Below are positions 11,267-17,923 of a DNA stretch of 32,000 nt, piece after piece. How positions within the stretch are numbered: position 1 is the stretch's first letter; each line of letters begins with the position of its first letter. Below the pieces are notes generated by a model. That model made no database searches. It was not told where the DNA came from and saw only the letters and a list, made by a program, of their open reading frames with translations. The position numbers and the translations under genes are program-made. The DNA is from Fibrobacter succinogenes subsp. succinogenes S85 (GTDB taxonomy: Bacteria > Fibrobacterota > Fibrobacteria > Fibrobacterales > Fibrobacteraceae), in the NCBI RefSeq assembly GCF_000146505.1, contig NC_017448.1, forward strand, positions 3,480,001 to 3,512,000. The letters run 5' to 3'.

Positions 11267-13789
11267 CTAGCCTCTCTTCAATTCGACCACATAATCCGCG
11301 GCGTCGACGAAGTCTTGTGCATGTTCAATAGCAATGACGGTGTGGCCGGCATTGCAAAGTCCGTGAATGAGCCCGAGCAACTGCTGGATATCCTTTTGAT
11401 GGAGACCGCGGGCGGGTTCGTCAAAGAGGAACAATGTGTTCGGGGCTTTGGCTCGCGCGAGTGTAATGGAGAGGCGGAGTCGAGCGCGTTCGCCACCGGA
11501 GAGGTGTGCTGTCGTTTGACCGAGACGCAAATAGTCAAGGCCTGTATCTACGAGCGGTTTGAGCTTTTCGGCGAACGGCTTCATGTTCGTGAATAGCTTG
11601 TATGCACTGCCGATTTCCATGTCCAAAATGTCGGCGATGGAAAGCGACTTGAATCGGATTTCCAAAACTTCATCACGGAAGCGCTTGCCGAGGCACACGG
11701 GGCATTCGGATTCTTCGTAGCCGAGCGGATCGTAAATGACGCCTTCTCCTTTGCAGTTCTCGCAACGGCCACCGGGGGCGTGCATGCTGAATTTGGAGGC
11801 GGTGTAGCCGCGCACTTTGCTTTCGGGGAGCTTCGCAAACAAGTCTCGCAATAGCGTGGTGAGGCCGATGGCACTCAAGACTGTGCTGCGCTTACTCCCG
11901 TGAAAATCTCCGGTCGTGAGAATCGAAAGAGCGTCGATGCCGAGCTTTTTGAATTCTTCGGCTTTGGCACGTTTGGCGATGTTTTCGAAAAGGAGTGTCG
12001 ATTTTCCGCTGCCGCTTTGGCCTGTAATCACGCTGAATTTGTTGATGGGGAAGGCGGCGTTCACCGGCGCCATGTCGAACTTCGCGAAGTTCTTGACGAG
12101 GATTGCTTGGCTTTTCTCCTCGCAATGGCATTCTACATTCCTTCCTACTTCCGACTTCCTACTTCCTACTGCTTTTATCCACATTCCCGTGGGCGATTCA
12201 GGATTCTCAAGTACTTCGTCACGAGTGCCTTGGAATAAAATTTCGCCACCTTTTTCGCCTGCGCCCGGCCCCATTTCAATAATGTAGTCTGCTCGCTTAA
12301 TGATTTGCGGATTGTGCTCAATGAGCACGAGCGTGTTGCCACGCTTGCGGATTTTTTCGAGGACTTTCCAAAGTGCAGAGACGTCACTAGCATGGAGACC
12401 GCTAGCGGGTTCGTCAAGGGCTATCAAAAGACCGTTCAAATGCCCTGTACTGAGGCTGGCGAGTTTAAGTCTTTGCAATTCGCCGCCCGAAAGCGTTTGT
12501 CCTGCGCGTCCTGGCGTGAGGTAACCAATGCCCAAATCGTTGATGGCTTCAATACGGTCGAGGAGCGAATTGAATGTCGCCTTTAAATTTTGCCCGATTT
12601 TGTTATCGAAAATTTTGTGCAAAAGCTCCGGCAATTCCGCAAATTCCGTCGTGAGAATTTGCTTGTAACTGACGTCATCTACGGTGGCGTTCAAGTATGT
12701 TTTCTTGAGGCGGAGCCCGTGACAGTGCGGGCATTCTGCGTTTTCGTCCTCGTCACTTTCTACATTGGATTCGGCGCGACCTTTGCCGCCTCCTTTCTCG
12801 TTGATTTTTGCTGGGGCAGCTTCTTGAATGATTCCCGTGCCGTAGCAATATTCGCAGACACTGGTGCGGCTGTATGGCGAGAACGCGCGTGCGTCCAGGC
12901 TGGCGACGGTTTCGTTTGACTTTTGCGATTGATGCTGCTCATCGCTTGCATTTGGGCAGCACGGCTTTGTGCTGTAGAACTTGCGTTCGCCCGCGATGTC
13001 AAGCGTGATTGCGGAATGCGTAAGCTTTAATGTGCCATCAACGGCTTCTGCGATTCGTGTGCGTGTGTTTTCACGAACGATGATTCTATCAACGATGATG
13101 AAAAATTCTTTGGGCGTCAAAACCTTTTCGCCAGGGAGCAAGTCTGCAAGCGAATACATGGTGCCATCGGCAATCGCACGTGTAAAACCCTGCGCCAAAA
13201 ATACGGCCGACAGTTTATCCAACGTCGTGCGACTCTTACTCTGCGCTTTCTTTTTGTCATTCCTGTCTGCATTGATGTCGCCCCGCACTTGTTGCGGGGT
13301 CGCCATTTCCGCATTTCCCGTTTCAATTTTCGCCAAGAACTGTAGCTTTGTCCCGATGGGCATTCCTGCGGTTTCGCGGATGATCTCTTCGCGGCTCTGG
13401 CTCACCATCGGGGCTCCGCAAATGGGGCAGGCGGGCTTTGCAAACGCAGCGAACAATGTGCGTAATGCGTTGTCACATTCGGCAATCGAAAGTGCAGATG
13501 CTTTCGCGGGAGCTTCTCCGCGCGTGGCGGCAATCGCTAAACTTGCGGGGAGTCCTTCGGCGCTGTCGAGCGGAATGCTTCGCTTGCCTCCGAGCAAATC
13601 TGCCGCAAAAGGCGAGAGCGTCTCGAGGTAGCGGCGTTTGCTTTCGCCGTGGAGCGTGTCCATCACGAGTGTCGATTTTCCGCAACCCGACGGTCCGCAT
13701 ACAACCGTAATTTTCCCCAGCGGAAACTGGGCGTCGACATTTTTTAAATTATGGAGTCTGCAACCGCGAATCGAAATGTAATCAAGCAT
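11267..13789 (-). CDS. uvrA: Excinuclease ABC subunit A-like protein (divergent, 840 aa)
   Basis: Two ABC modules with Walker A 'GPSGCGKSTL' and 'GQSGSGKSTL', signatures 'LSGGELQRL' and 'LSGGERARL', and Cys-cluster zinc modules (CPICG, CEYCYGTG, CPHCHG, CENCKGEG...CPVC). About 100 aa shorter than canonical UvrA. Confidence 0.85.
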   Translation of the reverse strand: MLDYISIRGCRLHNLKNVDAQFPLGKITVVCGPSGCGKSTLVMDTLHGESKRRYLETLSPFAADLLGGKRSIPLDSAEGLPASLAIAATRGEAPAKASALSIAECDNALRTLFAAFAKPACPICGAPMVSQSREEIIRETAGMPIGTKLQFLAKIETGNAEMATPQQVRGDINADRNDKKKAQSKSRTTLDKLSAVFLAQGFTRAIADGTMYSLADLLPGEKVLTPKEFFIIVDRIIVRENTRTRIAEAVDGTLKLTHSAITLDIAGERKFYSTKPCCPNASDEQHQSQKSNETVASLDARAFSPYSRTSVCEYCYGTGIIQEAAPAKINEKGGGKGRAESNVESDEDENAECPHCHGLRLKKTYLNATVDDVSYKQILTTEFAELPELLHKIFDNKIGQNLKATFNSLLDRIEAINDLGIGYLTPGRAGQTLSGGELQRLKLASLSTGHLNGLLIALDEPASGLHASDVSALWKVLEKIRKRGNTLVLIEHNPQIIKRADYIIEMGPGAGEKGGEILFQGTRDEVLENPESPTGMWIKAVGSRKSEVGRNVECHCEEKSQAILVKNFAKFDMAPVNAAFPINKFSVITGQSGSGKSTLLFENIAKRAKAEEFKKLGIDALSILTTGDFHGSKRSTVLSAIGLTTLLRDLFAKLPESKVRGYTASKFSMHAPGGRCENCKGEGVIYDPLGYEESECPVCLGKRFRDEVLEIRFKSLSIADILDMEIGSAYKLFTNMKPFAEKLKPLVDTGLDYLRLGQTTAHLSGGERARLRLSITLARAKAPNTLFLFDEPARGLHQKDIQQLLGLIHGLCNAGHTVIAIEHAQDFVDAADYVVELKRG

Positions 13790-13907
13790 CGTTTAAAAGA
13801 TAATTAATATGGTCGCTCAAAGCAAATTTTAGAGGTTCGTGAGTGTGAAAAAGCTATATTTAGAATAAAGAAAATCCTTCTAAACCATTTGATGATTGGT
13901 GCCTGTC

Positions 13908-14525
13908 ATGAAATTGCTTATTCCTTTTTTGCTCTCGTTATTCCTTCTCGCTTGCGGCAGCGATTCGTCAACTTCGGCGAATGATTCGGATGACGAACGA
14001 ATCACATATATAACGGACTCTCGCGATGGTCAAAAATACAAGACGGTAACTATCGGCTCGCAGACATGGATGGCGCAGAACCTGAACTACGAAACAGAAA
14101 ATAGCTATTGCTATGGCGATGATCCGGCAAATTGTTCCAAGTATGGTCGCTTGTACACTTGGGCTGCTGCGATGGAATCTTGTCCTACGGGTTGGCATTT
14201 GCCGACATTGGATGAGTTTCAAGTTTTGATTGATGCCGTTGGCGGAAAAAATATTGCGGGTAAAATGCTAAAGGCCACAAATGGCTGGGTTAAGGATGGC
14301 AACGGTACGGATGCATTCTTGTTCTCGGCTTTGCCTGCTGGTTTTGCGATTGGCAGGGGAAAATATGAGCGTGAAGGAGAATTTGCGGAATTCTGGAGCG
14401 CTACTAAATATGAACGCACTGACCCAGATTCGTATGATATCTTTTTAAGTCATTTTTCAGATGGTGCTGGTTGGGACTACTCCTCCAGACGCGATGTGTT
14501 TTCTGTCCGTTGTTTAAAGGACTAG
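13908..14525 (+). CDS. Lipoprotein with a Fibrobacter succinogenes major paralogous domain (TIGR02145-type)
   Basis: Lipobox 'LLACG', then 'TDSRDGQKYKTVTIGSQTWMAQNLNY', 'GRLYTWAAA', 'GWHLPT' and a C-terminal 'SVRCLKD'. The ATG at 13908 is preferred over the TTG at 13896. Confidence 0.85.
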   Translation: MKLLIPFLLSLFLLACGSDSSTSANDSDDERITYITDSRDGQKYKTVTIGSQTWMAQNLNYETENSYCYGDDPANCSKYGRLYTWAAAMESCPTGWHLPTLDEFQVLIDAVGGKNIAGKMLKATNGWVKDGNGTDAFLFSALPAGFAIGRGKYEREGEFAEFWSATKYERTDPDSYDIFLSHFSDGAGWDYSSRRDVFSVRCLKD

Positions 14526-14555
14526 CTTTAAGATTTCGCAGGAAGCCTCTAGTTT

Positions 14556-14966
14556 TCAGTGATTGCTAATATCGCCGAAGCTGGCTTCTATGAAGAAAAT
14601 GTGAAATACTTGTTGTTCCTGTAATCCTACTAAAACGCGATTATCCCCGCTTGAACGGAGAATGTGCAAATCTTTTACGTCAGGTGTTAGACATTCGGCT
14701 TTTGCGGTATGTTTAATCTGACCAACAGGCATTTTTTCCATGCCCCATTGATGTCGCCCTGAAGCGCGGATTCCTTGCCAACCTATTGTCGAATATTTTT
14801 TGAAACGTCCAAGTAAATCGGTAAAAAATTTTGAGTTGCTGCACTTATTGTATGATTCTTCAACCAAATATTTGAATGAAAAAAGAACGTCGTTGCTGGA
14901 TACTGCTGTTCTAGAAACACTTGCGACGCCTTGTATTGGCGGAATAATTTTGAATTTATGTGTCAT
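14556..14966 (-). CDS. Candidate toxin partner (PanT-like position) of the Panacea antitoxin; family not recognised
   Basis: 136-aa ORF starting at an ATG 5 nt after the PanA-like stop, on the same strand. The longer track ORF (start 15053) would overlap the antitoxin by 82 nt. The function is inferred only from its position. Confidence 0.45.
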   Translation of the reverse strand: MTHKFKIIPPIQGVASVSRTAVSSNDVLFSFKYLVEESYNKCSNSKFFTDLLGRFKKYSTIGWQGIRASGRHQWGMEKMPVGQIKHTAKAECLTPDVKDLHILRSSGDNRVLVGLQEQQVFHIFFIEASFGDISNH

Positions 14967-14971
14967 TTCTT

Positions 14972-15409
14972 TTAGGCGAGTCTTGTTAAGAAGAATTTCT
15001 TCATTGATTCTTGGCTGATAATGTTGCCTTTGCCTGGAGATACTGAATTCCATGGCGGCTCGCTATGTGTCATTTCTACTAGTTTTACGGCTGAATACTG
15101 GTTGTATACATCAAAGACGTTGTTGAACAAAGTTGTTTCTTCTTCGTTTAGTTTGATGTCTATTTGGGTAGGAGGTTCAATTCCCTTTGCATCATATTTT
15201 GCATATTTTTCATAGACTTCAGGAACTACAGGACCGAACATCCATGCTTCGATATTTTCGTCAAATAAAGGAGTGTCAAATGCGGCCAAATGGAAACCCT
15301 GCTCGTAGTAAAGCATTTTTTGCAGCTTGAGATTGGACATCAATTCTTGATTTCTTTCTGCAGCTTTTGATAAAAGCAATTGAGCTATTTGTAACGCCTT
15401 GTATGCCAT
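14972..15409 (-). CDS. Panacea/DUF4065 domain protein (SocA/PanA-type antitoxin)
   Basis: 'NLKLQKMLYYEQGFHLAAFDTPLFDENIEAWMFGPVVPEVYEKY' closely matches the DUF4065 core (LKLQKLLYY.QGW.L...PLF.E.IEAW.YGPV.P.VY). Confidence 0.85.
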   Translation of the reverse strand: MAYKALQIAQLLLSKAAERNQELMSNLKLQKMLYYEQGFHLAAFDTPLFDENIEAWMFGPVVPEVYEKYAKYDAKGIEPPTQIDIKLNEEETTLFNNVFDVYNQYSAVKLVEMTHSEPPWNSVSPGKGNIISQESMKKFFLTRLA

Positions 15410-15429
15410 TTATGTGCCTTTTGCCTCTA

Positions 15430-15458
15430 AAAATAAGTTTTGCAAAATCAGATGTCAA
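15430..15458 (-). promoter_or_regulatory. Sigma70-like promoter for the PanA operon (TTGACA-17 nt-TATTTT)
   Basis: The minus strand reads TTGACAtctgattttgcaaaactTATTTT, about 20 nt upstream of the ATG at 15409. Confidence 0.4.
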
Positions 15459-15597
15459 TGATTCGTATTTTTCTTGACATTTTGCAGTTTTTGCGGTTTG
15501 TGGTAAATCTACAAACGAAAATCACGAAAAACGGAAAAACACTAAATTTTGCAATCAACCGTTAGCAAGAATGTTGGAAATTTCTTTTTACAAAAAT

Positions 15598-15605
15598 TAT
15601 ATTTG
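15598..15605 (+). promoter_or_regulatory. TATATTTG box 5 nt upstream of the ATG at 15611
   Basis: Reads ...AAATTATATTTGAAATTATG. The spacing (5 nt) is the same as at 1776-1783(-). Confidence 0.45.
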
Positions 15606-15610
15606 AAATT

Positions 15611-16567
15611 ATGAAAAATCTATTGATTTCTTTGTTGATTTTATTGCTTTCAACAGACATTTTCGCGGCGTATGTGGCCGTTTTGGAAACGGGAGCTGAT
15701 GGTAATGCAAGGGAAATTGTTTCTCTTACCGACCGTCAATATCTTACGAATGTTTTGCGTGAAGAAGCTGTGACGCAATTGCCTGCGACGCAAAACTACA
15801 CGATTATGACCCGCGAAAACATTATGCAGATGCTCCCTCCAGGGAAAGCAATTGAAGATTGCGAAGGCAGTTGCCTTGTTGAAACAGGCAAGAACATCGC
15901 TGCGGATTACGTTTGCCAAGCACGTGTGGGTAGCTTTGGTGGCGACCTGACTTTGTCTGCGGAACTTTACGAAACGGCGGGAAATAAGCTCATCGCAAGT
16001 TTCAACGGTCAAGGATCTGACGTGAAGGATCTCCTAGCTCTTGTTCGCGAAAAGTCGGCTGAATTTTTTGGCGTTGTGAAAAATATGACTCAACCAGTAT
16101 CCGAACCCGTTGTTGCTGAAGTTAATGAGATGGCTCCGGTTCCTGCAGAAAACGTTGCTGATGAACAAAAAACTGAAATGCCTATTGTGAATCCTAAAGC
16201 ATCTGATTCGGTGCGTGTGCTTGCAAATGATGCCTATAATGAAGTGGATGGTAAAACAACACCGCAAGTGGGCGAGAGCATCCCTGCAAATGTAGGTGGC
16301 GATTCTGCTGAAAATGCTTCTGCTGAAAACGTTGCTAAAAAGAGCGGGCCTCGTTGGGTTGTACTTGGCATTGGTGCTGCGGTAACGGTGACTGGCGTTG
16401 TACTCGCTGTGGTTGGGAACAGCAAGGCTAAGGATGCTGCTGAAAGGAATAGCGTCGACTTGCACCGGGATTTGGATGATGCAAAAACGGGTCAGACGCT
16501 TCGTGGTGTTGGTATTGGTGTTGCTATTGCTGGTGCAATTGGTATTGGTCTCAGTTTTGTGTTTTAG
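15611..16567 (+). CDS. Secreted/tail-anchored protein with an LpoB/CsgG-like N-domain, an acidic linker and two C-terminal TM helices
   Basis: Signal peptide, then 'VAVLE...GKNIAADYVCQARVGSFGGDLTLSAELYETAGNKLIAS', a pattern seen in LpoB/CsgG/TolB-N-like domains. C-terminal helices are 'WVVLGIGAAVTVTGVVLAVVG' and 'GVGIGVAIAGAIGIGLSFVF'. Confidence 0.65.
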   Translation: MKNLLISLLILLLSTDIFAAYVAVLETGADGNAREIVSLTDRQYLTNVLREEAVTQLPATQNYTIMTRENIMQMLPPGKAIEDCEGSCLVETGKNIAADYVCQARVGSFGGDLTLSAELYETAGNKLIASFNGQGSDVKDLLALVREKSAEFFGVVKNMTQPVSEPVVAEVNEMAPVPAENVADEQKTEMPIVNPKASDSVRVLANDAYNEVDGKTTPQVGESIPANVGGDSAENASAENVAKKSGPRWVVLGIGAAVTVTGVVLAVVGNSKAKDAAERNSVDLHRDLDDAKTGQTLRGVGIGVAIAGAIGIGLSFVF

Positions 16568-16576
16568 GAAGATGCT

Positions 16577-17923
16577 ATGAAGTGGCTTGTAATATCTTGT
16601 ATTTTTCTACTTTCCGCTTGTACTGATTATGTGGCGCAAATAGAAGATAAAATAGAAGAACAAGAACGGACGTCCTTTGTTGAGTCGTCTGATAATTCCA
16701 GGCTCAAGTCTTCATCTTCTGTCGCTAAGTCGAATAGCAGTGTAAAGTCTGACAGTTCAGATAATGAAAACGCGTATAGTAGTTCTGTAAAAGAGGAAAT
16801 ATCTTCATCATCTAAAATAAAAGCTCTTGAATGTGCTGAGTTTCCGTCTGTACAGGATCGGAATGATTCTACTCAAATTATAATTCGGTTTATGCCTTCA
16901 TGGACAAATACAAGCGCTATTATGTCTATTGATGGTAATGAATCTGTCATGACTGCTGTAAAAAACTTCTGTGGTTGGTTCGAGGCCAAGGCAAAATTAC
17001 CAACGGTTGGACTTAAGGTCTATTTTAAGCAGACTGTTGGTTCAAAAAATACTGCGAAAATTTCCCTTGATAGTGTAGCGGCTTTGAGTGATACTCTGTG
17101 GGTTATTGAAAACTCGAACAATGAACTAGATGCATATGTGTGCTACCCGGGCATTCTTGGTAATTGCCCTGTCAAAACTCTCTCGGTAACGATGTTTGAT
17201 TGGCTTCACGGCACCAATGGTGACGGTGATGGTGAAGGCCAAAACGGTGACCCCGCTAATGGCGTTAGCGCAGACTTCGGTTCTGGCGGATGTCTTGCTC
17301 ACGTGAAAGGCATGGTTGAACAGATCTTGGGTGCTAATGGAGTTCCTGTACCTGTAGCGAACTTTCCTGAAAACTGTAAAAATACAACACATCTCGACAA
17401 GTGGTTCCTACCTGAAGTTGTTGTTGAAAAAGACGATGAACAGTACACCAATGCCACCTGCCGTTTTATCGAATTGCAACTCCAAGATGATGGTCTTTGG
17501 CTCGCGCAAAAAGACGACACCAGCCCAGAAGGCGGATTTTTCTTGCTCGATGACTTCCAATATCTTGATGCTGAACAGACTGTTTTGAACCCTTATTTTG
17601 ACAATATCCGCGGTCTTAACAAGAAACATAATTTTGGCTTCACCATGAAAATCCAGGCAGCGTTCGAATATGTTCCGGGCCAATACTTCGAGTTTTTTGG
17701 TGATGATGATGTTTGGGTGTTTATAAACAATCATCTCGTTGTGGATCTTGGCGGTGTGCATACGCAGATTTTGGGCGCAGTGGATTTAGATACTCTCGGA
17801 CTTATCGAAGGCGAAAACTACCCGTTCCACATCTTCTATGCGGAACGTCATACATCCCAGTCCAATTTCATGATGAAAACATCTATAGATTTGAATTCTG
17901 ATGGCGATGGACGTTGCCACTAA
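16577..17923 (+). CDS. Lipoprotein with a C-terminal fibro-slime (PA14-like, TIGR02148-type) domain
   Basis: Lipobox 'LLSAC', a Ser-rich linker, then 'HNFGFTMKIQAAFEYVPGQYFEFFGDDDVWVFINNHLVVDLGGVH...FHIFYAERHTSQSNF'. It starts 10 nt after the previous stop. Confidence 0.85.
   Translation: MKWLVISCIFLLSACTDYVAQIEDKIEEQERTSFVESSDNSRLKSSSSVAKSNSSVKSDSSDNENAYSSSVKEEISSSSKIKALECAEFPSVQDRNDSTQIIIRFMPSWTNTSAIMSIDGNESVMTAVKNFCGWFEAKAKLPTVGLKVYFKQTVGSKNTAKISLDSVAALSDTLWVIENSNNELDAYVCYPGILGNCPVKTLSVTMFDWLHGTNGDGDGEGQNGDPANGVSADFGSGGCLAHVKGMVEQILGANGVPVPVANFPENCKNTTHLDKWFLPEVVVEKDDEQYTNATCRFIELQLQDDGLWLAQKDDTSPEGGFFLLDDFQYLDAEQTVLNPYFDNIRGLNKKHNFGFTMKIQAAFEYVPGQYFEFFGDDDVWVFINNHLVVDLGGVHTQILGAVDLDTLGLIEGENYPFHIFYAERHTSQSNFMMKTSIDLNSDGDGRCH

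Follow-up and report, generated by a model that had tools for sequence, protein, structure and literature searches.

Two small adjacent genes on the chromosome of Fibrobacter succinogenes subsp. succinogenes S85 raise the question of whether they form a toxin-antitoxin (TA) module and, if so, what the toxin is. They lie in a stretch of 32,000 nucleotides (assembly GCF_000146505.1, contig NC_017448.1, positions 3,480,001–3,512,000), which was analysed as a whole and is called the window below; positions refer to it unless stated otherwise. A preliminary description of this DNA, made from the letters alone, had read the first gene as a Panacea (DUF4065) antitoxin and the second as its unrecognised partner. 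This reading was right in kind, since a Panacea antitoxin in a conserved PanA-PanT-type module was found, but the novelty of the partner was not sustained. The locus is, in our judgement, probably a chromosomal type II TA module of the PanA-PanT class with a RelE-like PanT. The two open reading frames were located exactly where they had been described, and 5 nt (AAGAA) separate the stop codon of panA from the ATG of panT:

14972–15409, minus strand: panA, encoding a 145-aa standalone Panacea-domain antitoxin-type protein without an extra N-terminal domain.
14556–14966, minus strand: panT, encoding a 136-aa probable toxin that belongs to PanT cluster T1 and is predicted to have a RelE/YoeB-like fold.

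The Panacea domain of the first protein was borne out by formal profile search. PanA matched the Pfam family PF13274 (SocA_Panacea) with an E-value of 2.7e-20 and a score of 73.8 bits (cut-off of 25.7), over residues 29–120 and profile positions 1–112 of 113. Matches to phrog_1281 (E 2.8e-46) and to the NCBIfam model SocA_antitoxin (NF047745; E 4.8e-20) were also obtained, the latter at 72 bits and thus below the equivalog cut-off of 190 bits. The ratio of non-synonymous to synonymous substitution rates (dN/dS) of PanA versus its relatives was 0.03–0.06. Judged by its sequence, the product of the 145-aa gene is a Panacea-domain antitoxin-type protein.

It was found that the pair had already been recorded. 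For F. succinogenes S85 (GCF_000146505.1), Kurata et al. 2022 (PNAS 119:e2102212119, PMC8832971) give three PanA-PanT pairs in their Dataset S1:

PanA WP_014547082.1 and PanT WP_015732312.1: cluster T1, order A then T, gap 5, reciprocity 5 and 5.
PanA WP_014547295.1 and PanT WP_014547296.1: cluster T5, order A then T, gap 2, reciprocity 2 and 2.
PanA WP_015732385.1 and PanT WP_014547293.1: cluster T5, order A then T, gap -1, reciprocity 5 and 5.

Exactly three PF13274 loci are present in the S85 genome, with partner gaps of 5 nt (the present locus), 2 nt and -1 nt. By gap, the three loci map one-to-one on the three rows, and therefore the present pair is the T1 row. A further comparison gave the same assignment. 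In Salmonella phage Emek, from which a T1 member was tested in that study, orf149, which encodes a PF13274 protein, shares a 62-nt overlap with orf161, in agreement with the gap of -62 in Dataset S1. When orf161, the tested T1 member, was compared with the profile of the family of the S85 protein (alignment A2, see below), hhalign gave a probability of 99.9% and an E-value of 1.3e-34 over 116 columns. The locus is thus a PanA-PanT pair already catalogued for S85 in PanT cluster T1, so that the partner can no longer be called unrecognised, and the comparison with the catalogued PanT families that had been proposed as a check places it in T1. In the same dataset this PanA is tagged 'noNTD'. T1 is the largest PanT cluster, with 217 of the 1,268 predicted PanAT pairs (counted as occurrences of 'pT1' in the text of Dataset S1, one per row). 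Its domain field reads 'NoTest', so that Dataset S1 gives it no domain assignment, and the tested T1 members are labelled 'mRNase' in Table S1 (PMC8832971). None of the S85 and T1 accessions searched for was found in the NetFlax supplements (PMC10440598).

The two other PanA pairs of S85 are arranged in tandem, ∼1.5 kb apart, at 3,782,506–3,784,925 of the S85 genome (G000; loci L013 1402–2468 and L011 1402–2354). Their partners measure 163 aa (gap -1 nt) and 135 aa (gap 2 nt) and match PemK/MazF in Pfam only weakly (E 0.02–0.05); the pairs are those of the two T5 rows.

Is the association of the two genes conserved outside S85? The PanT family was detected in 18 genomes of the 296 in the phylum, and in 9 of the 100 genomes of the genus besides S85. 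PanA was immediately upstream of panT in 18 of the 19 phylum loci, and chance adjacency of the two genes was rejected on this linkage. The same two genes stand together in 17 further phylum genomes, and also in metagenome-assembled genomes (MAGs) with different flanking genes. On recurrence and on reciprocity (relatives of the partner themselves adjoin PanA), the pair agrees with the criteria of Kurata et al. 2022 for PanAT two-gene modules. PanA was found upstream in all MAG contexts whose contig covers the upstream region, though the flanking genes differ; the MAG homologues stand beside EamA and Phd/YefM genes, or beside a reverse transcriptase. The preliminary description had staked its reading on two points that were looked at here, the DUF4065 domain and the Panacea neighbour of the homologues; the domain was confirmed, and in the other genomes examined the homologues nearly always adjoin a Panacea gene. 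Among four distant representatives PanA was upstream in three, the exception being P0117. This 128-aa T1 homologue, on a 69-kb metagenome contig (L107 1674–2887), has no Panacea gene beside it; its first 4 nt coincide with the last 4 of a MaoC-dehydratase gene, and it could be a solo or a re-partnered member.

The second question was what the partner is. By sequence, the panT product had no match in Pfam or PADLOC, and in NCBIfam only chance-level matches (PSM alpha-3, lambda Bet) were obtained. Nothing was found among PDB sequences at E ≤ 10 by phmmer and profile search. A match to phrog_8366, of unknown function, was obtained (E 2e-12). By tblastn, PanT had no match in phage and plasmid records, the phage Emek homologue being detected by profile only. 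Exhaustive HMMER search yielded 158 representatives of the family at 50% identity, all of ∼130–150 aa; those with a source name came from Bacteroidales, Porphyromonas and Fibrobacter, and all were called 'hypothetical'. A longer reading of the S85 gene, of 165 aa from an ATG at 15053, was dropped. The 136-aa start was preferred because the homologues align from there and the open frame of a related genome (G195) starts just 3 codons upstream.

For residue conservation, an alignment of 110 family members (A2) was used, with the numbering of S85. G75 and E77 were invariant (E77 in 100%), and F29, F31, W63, R104 (98%), G114 and H136 (96%) were near-invariant. Y134 (90%), H72 (86%) and R116 (73%) were well conserved. 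The motifs FSFKYL, GRHQWGME and RVLVGL...VFHIFFIEASFGD that had been picked out in the 136-aa protein were all found there. PanT is under strong purifying selection, with a dN/dS of about 0.08 out to a dS of ∼2, and S85 PanT retains E77, R104, H72 and H136.

To what fold does this protein belong? An AlphaFold2 model of S85 PanT with A2 as input reached a mean predicted local distance difference test score (pLDDT) of 90.3 and a predicted template modelling score (pTM) of 0.79. It contained a strand at 28–30, a helix at 45–68 and strands at 77–80, 99–104, 111–117 and 120–126; the last two form a predicted hairpin, in agreement with the beta-hairpin-like end that had been suspected at the C-terminus. 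In a Foldseek search of the PDB with this model, RelE-superfamily toxins occupied ranks 1–18 and most of the top 50, and comprised YoeB, RelK, YafQ, archaeal RelE, HigB, HP0894 and ParE (5czf, 5cw7, 8c26). The best match was the YoeB chain 7v5y_E (E 0.095, probability 0.85, template modelling (TM) score of 0.58 on the target). The search was replicated with a model of the family member P0100, which is 26% identical (pLDDT 88.9), and its top 22 matches were all RelE-type; the best was the YoeB chain 7v6w_F, with a probability of 0.97, a TM score of 0.69 on the target and a root-mean-square deviation of 3.3 Å. BrnT and the RelE-like Cami1 were also among the matches of P0100. On these models, the predicted fold of PanT is RelE/YoeB-like: a single strand at the N-terminus is followed by a long helix and by a sheet of four strands. 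The statement that the protein could not be placed in RelE/ParE families therefore held only for sequence profiles, none of which detects such families, whereas two AlphaFold models retrieve RelE, YoeB, YafQ and HigB almost exclusively. A fold search of BFVD gave no meaningful match. When the conserved residues were placed on the model, the Glu was on the first strand of the sheet, the Arg on the next, and a Tyr-x-His at the extreme C-terminus. Such a pattern of Glu, Arg and C-terminal His/Tyr is typical of the RNase members YoeB and RelE and is not known from ParE.

The two genes were observed to decay unequally. PanT was broken beside an intact PanA in five Fibrobacteraceae genomes (G181, G184, G197, G199 and G208), and no locus with the reverse pattern, a broken PanA beside an intact PanT, was found among those compared. 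G181, G184 and G197, which are three species, have one truncation in common, with homology ending at window position 14749, so that ∼74 native residues are left and Glu77 onward is lost; an additional stop codon is present in G197. In G199, panT carries a frameshifting deletion of ∼80 bp (14673–14753) and a Met1-to-Lys change, and in G208 only the last ∼40 residues remain. The PanA beside the broken PanT was 95–99% identical in the four Fibrobacter genomes, and 50% identical in G208. This asymmetric pattern, which is apparently new, fits a harmful PanT that is lost first. In the leftover N-terminal fragment of PanT, 0 non-synonymous and 4 synonymous changes were counted between L097 and L098 (L097–L099 are the loci of G184, G181 and G197).

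For the favoured reading, a PanA-PanT module with a RelE-like toxin, the following mechanism can be proposed. PanT would act as a ribosome-dependent mRNA endonuclease that arrests translation. The residues proposed for its active site are the near-invariant Glu77, Arg104 and C-terminal His136, with Arg71/His72 assisting; Tyr134 and Arg116 would contribute as well in most relatives. Because the S85 clade has Ser134 and Gln116 at these two positions, its toxin may be attenuated or altered in specificity. PanA would bind PanT directly and keep it inactive, by analogy with standalone Panacea antitoxins, which were reported to neutralise by direct binding (Ernits et al. 2023); direct binding is proposed because PanA has no extra neutralising domain. 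The module would probably persist by addiction, and it may also serve as a phage-triggered growth-arrest device.

Several observations weigh against this reading. The Foldseek E-values were weak individually (0.07–0.1), and because of this the fold argument rests on the exclusivity of the matches and on their reproducibility. None of the 110 family members matched the Pfam models of RelE, ParE, YoeB, HigB and YafQ at E ≤ 0.1. When A2 was compared by hhalign with 28 YoeB (PF06769) and 29 ParE/RelE (PF05016) proteins collected from the same phylum, a probability of 0.1% was obtained, against 93.8% for the YoeB-ParE control; membership of the RelE superfamily is thus based on structure. The Glu/Arg/His/Tyr pattern of PanT is reminiscent of Glu46/Arg65/His83/Tyr84, the catalytic set of YoeB, and its equivalence to that set is only putative. 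S85 PanT and its Fibrobacter clade carry Ser134 and Gln116 (Y134S, R116Q) at two of the conserved positions. Orphan PanA genes with the common PanT truncation showed a pN/pS of 0.05–0.10 among themselves (small counts). In the E. coli tests of Kurata et al. 2022 (PMC8832971), no T1 pair was validated: the T1 member of C. cadaveris was toxic and was not neutralised by its own PanA, and those of E. coli MOD1 and phage Emek were not toxic.

The likeliest rival to this reading is that the pair is no classical TA module, and that PanT is a non-toxic or conditionally active protein of the RelE fold, for example a phage-sensing abortive-infection effector with Panacea as its sensor, or a housekeeping RNase modulated by PanA. 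It was regarded as unlikely. In its favour, two of the three tested T1 members were not toxic in E. coli and the toxic one was not neutralised, and a sensory role of Panacea was put forward by Ernits et al. 2023. In a minimised Mycoplasma, a possible parallel, a DUF4065 gene can be dispensed with, whereas its RelE-like neighbour is quasi-essential (PMC13621843). The continued purifying selection on orphan PanA points in the same direction, and since it is maintained after PanT truncation, PanA may have a role beyond neutralising PanT. On the other side, PanT was broken five times beside an intact PanA and never the reverse, as would be expected if PanT were harmful; toxicity was seen for one T1 member (PMC8832971); and the architecture and linkage of the genes are typical of type II TA systems. 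A broader form of this explanation, held to be equally doubtful, concerns T1 as a whole: its members would be RelE-fold RNases with an extended N-terminus, dependent on a host or a trigger and not classical toxins, and Panacea would be under selection for a separate function, in sensing, in general anti-toxin action or in counteracting addiction. On that view one could understand the lack of a validated T1 pair in E. coli, the retention of orphan PanA under purifying selection, and the tolerance of Fibrobacter for replacement of Tyr134 and Arg116.

Somewhat less likely still is that S85 PanT is a decayed or attenuated toxin and a mere passenger. Its Ser134 and Gln116 replace residues conserved in 90% and 73% of the family, and several related genomes show a PanT in visible decay. 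Nevertheless, the Ser134 form is common to the whole Fibrobacter clade, the four other residues E77, R104, H72 and H136 are intact, and the strong purifying selection described above indicated that S85 PanT is functional in some sense. That PanT is a ParE-type DNA gyrase poison and not an RNase was considered very improbable, for although ParE structures are among the Foldseek matches and RelE and ParE have one fold in common, ParE ranks below YoeB, RelE, YafQ and HigB in both searches, the family keeps the invariant Glu, the near-invariant Arg and the C-terminal His/Tyr, and T1 was labelled 'mRNase' by Kurata et al. (PMC8832971).

In the upstream region of the pair, two features were located:

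15430–15458, minus strand: a promoter-like TTGACA-17-TATTTT that precedes the panA ATG by 20 nt and agrees with 10 of the 12 consensus positions in a scan.
15546–15562, plus strand: the 17-mer ATTTTGCAATCAACCGT; it lies further upstream, ∼90 nt from the -35 box, and is retained in L001, a diverged module in which the adjacent bases differ.

The promoter scan by itself is weak, because 7 promoter-like sites were found in the region versus 3.9 ± 1.9 in shuffled sequences. Both hexamers (TTGAC and TATTTT) were retained in 9 of the 9 aligned upstream regions, including those of the modules L001 and L006 with diverged surroundings. The sigma70-like promoter of its own that had been ascribed to the pair is thus present and conserved, as a predicted promoter. 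With the genes only 5 nt apart behind it, a single bicistronic panA-panT transcript is suggested by the sequence. A further motif, ATTTTGCA, was clustered locally, 4 of its 5 copies in the window lying within 15196–15553 (∼360 bp); over the whole window it was not enriched (5 copies versus 3.3 expected), and the local clustering alone is notable. The stretch with ATTTTGCAATCAACCGT and ATTTTGCA could be an operator or the end of the module.

Comparison with related genomes defined the boundaries of the module. In G195, exactly the segment 14553–15568 (1254–2269 of a query comprising 13300–16900) was found, at 89% identity, and it abuts the region upstream of a uvrA-like gene, without the lipoprotein gene that is the left neighbour in S85. 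In G179, only 7 nt separate the counterparts of window positions 13809 and 15592, and neither the lipoprotein gene nor the PanAT pair is present, so that it represents an empty site. G167 has the left flank in common with the window and not the right. From these three comparisons, the module is a ∼1-kb unit in a variable spot:

14553–15568, no strand assigned: the minimal shared mobile unit of ∼1 kb (panT, panA and the upstream region), from the G195 comparison.

More generally, 13809–15592, the intergenic space from the uvrA-like gene to the surface-protein operon, is a variable spot in which relatives carry the lipoprotein gene, PanAT or paralogous lipoprotein genes in differing combinations. 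No terminal direct or inverted repeats bounding the module were found. The G+C content was 0.345–0.42 across 14401–15600 versus about 0.45–0.56 in the flanks, in accordance with the AT-rich islet noted before. The module is a ∼1-kb AT-rich cassette that was horizontally acquired. Taken together, the results support that the two genes are a conserved, autonomous, AT-rich and horizontally mobile PanA-PanT-type module with conserved promoter elements.

The neighbours also agreed with the position that had been given, between a lipoprotein gene and a surface-protein operon: the left neighbour is a Fib_succ_major lipoprotein gene, and the right neighbours are genes of a 318-aa protein and a PA14 protein. 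Further left, at 11267–13789 on the minus strand, lies the uvrA-like gene, whose product, of only 840 aa, is short for UvrA; it has a UvrA interaction domain and two ATP-binding cassette halves, and may represent a UvrA of class II or a paralogue.

Some Fibrobacter MAG contigs (L006 1513–4357, also L007–L009) carry a 366-aa reverse transcriptase 28 nt upstream of PanA. In L006 it matched the generic reverse transcriptase model of PADLOC (4e-31), with weak group-II, DRT and retron matches. Nearby are a divergent 268-aa protein that faintly matches Avd, a protein of diversity-generating retroelements, and a large Fib_succ_major protein downstream, and such a retroelement may lie beside the L006 module. 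The L006-type PanT is 118 aa long and is without the C-terminal strand and His.

As a find the pair is ordinary, and the picture of the field is unchanged by it. What changes is the annotation of two 'hypothetical proteins' of F. succinogenes S85, a model cellulolytic bacterium, which can now be annotated as a PanA-PanT(T1) module whose toxin is probably a RelE-like RNase. The wider interest is in T1, which makes up 217 of 1,268 predicted pairs, yet has no Pfam family, no fold stated in the catalogue and no validated member. The additions made here are the reproducible prediction of a RelE/YoeB-like fold, the conserved Glu/Arg/His set as candidate catalytic residues, the boundaries of the module and its empty site, the toxin-first decay and the Y134S/R116Q changes of the S85 clade; the fold, the residue set and the decay are concrete targets for validating T1.

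Among the known systems compared is SocA-SocB of Caulobacter, a type VI TA system with a Panacea-domain adaptor. The Panacea domain is common to SocA and PanA, whereas S85 PanA, at 72 bits, is far under the SocA equivalog cut-off, and PanT bears no relation to SocB. Because Kurata et al. found that PanAT pairs act as type II systems, action as a ClpXP adaptor in the manner of SocA is not expected here. In the pair MMSYN1_0416/0417 of Mycoplasma mycoides JCVI-syn3.0 (mSphere 2026, PMC13621843), a DUF4065 gene adjoins a gene for a small protein, as in S85. The neighbour, which has a conserved His at its C-terminus, was judged to be a distant RelE-like interferase solely by comparing structures, and it is the toxin-like gene of that pair that is quasi-essential.

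The ribosome-dependent mRNA interferases YoeB, RelE, YafQ and HigB of the RelE/ParE superfamily share the fold predicted for PanT and the order of its secondary-structure elements, and are likewise encoded by the second gene of a two-gene operon. PanT differs from them in having no detectable sequence or profile similarity, and is ∼50 residues longer, with a basic, disordered N-terminal segment (∼26 residues) and a loop between strands (∼18 residues, 81–98). The S85 model has one long helix where two are expected, and the partner of PanT is Panacea, not an antitoxin of the YefM, RelB, DinJ or HigA type. The closest likeness is to PanA-PanT cluster T1 itself (PMC8832971). At positions 134 and 116 the S85 clade lacks the Tyr and Arg of most T1 members; the order is the same, a standalone Panacea gene followed after 5 nt by the toxin gene, and the S85 pair is no different in kind.

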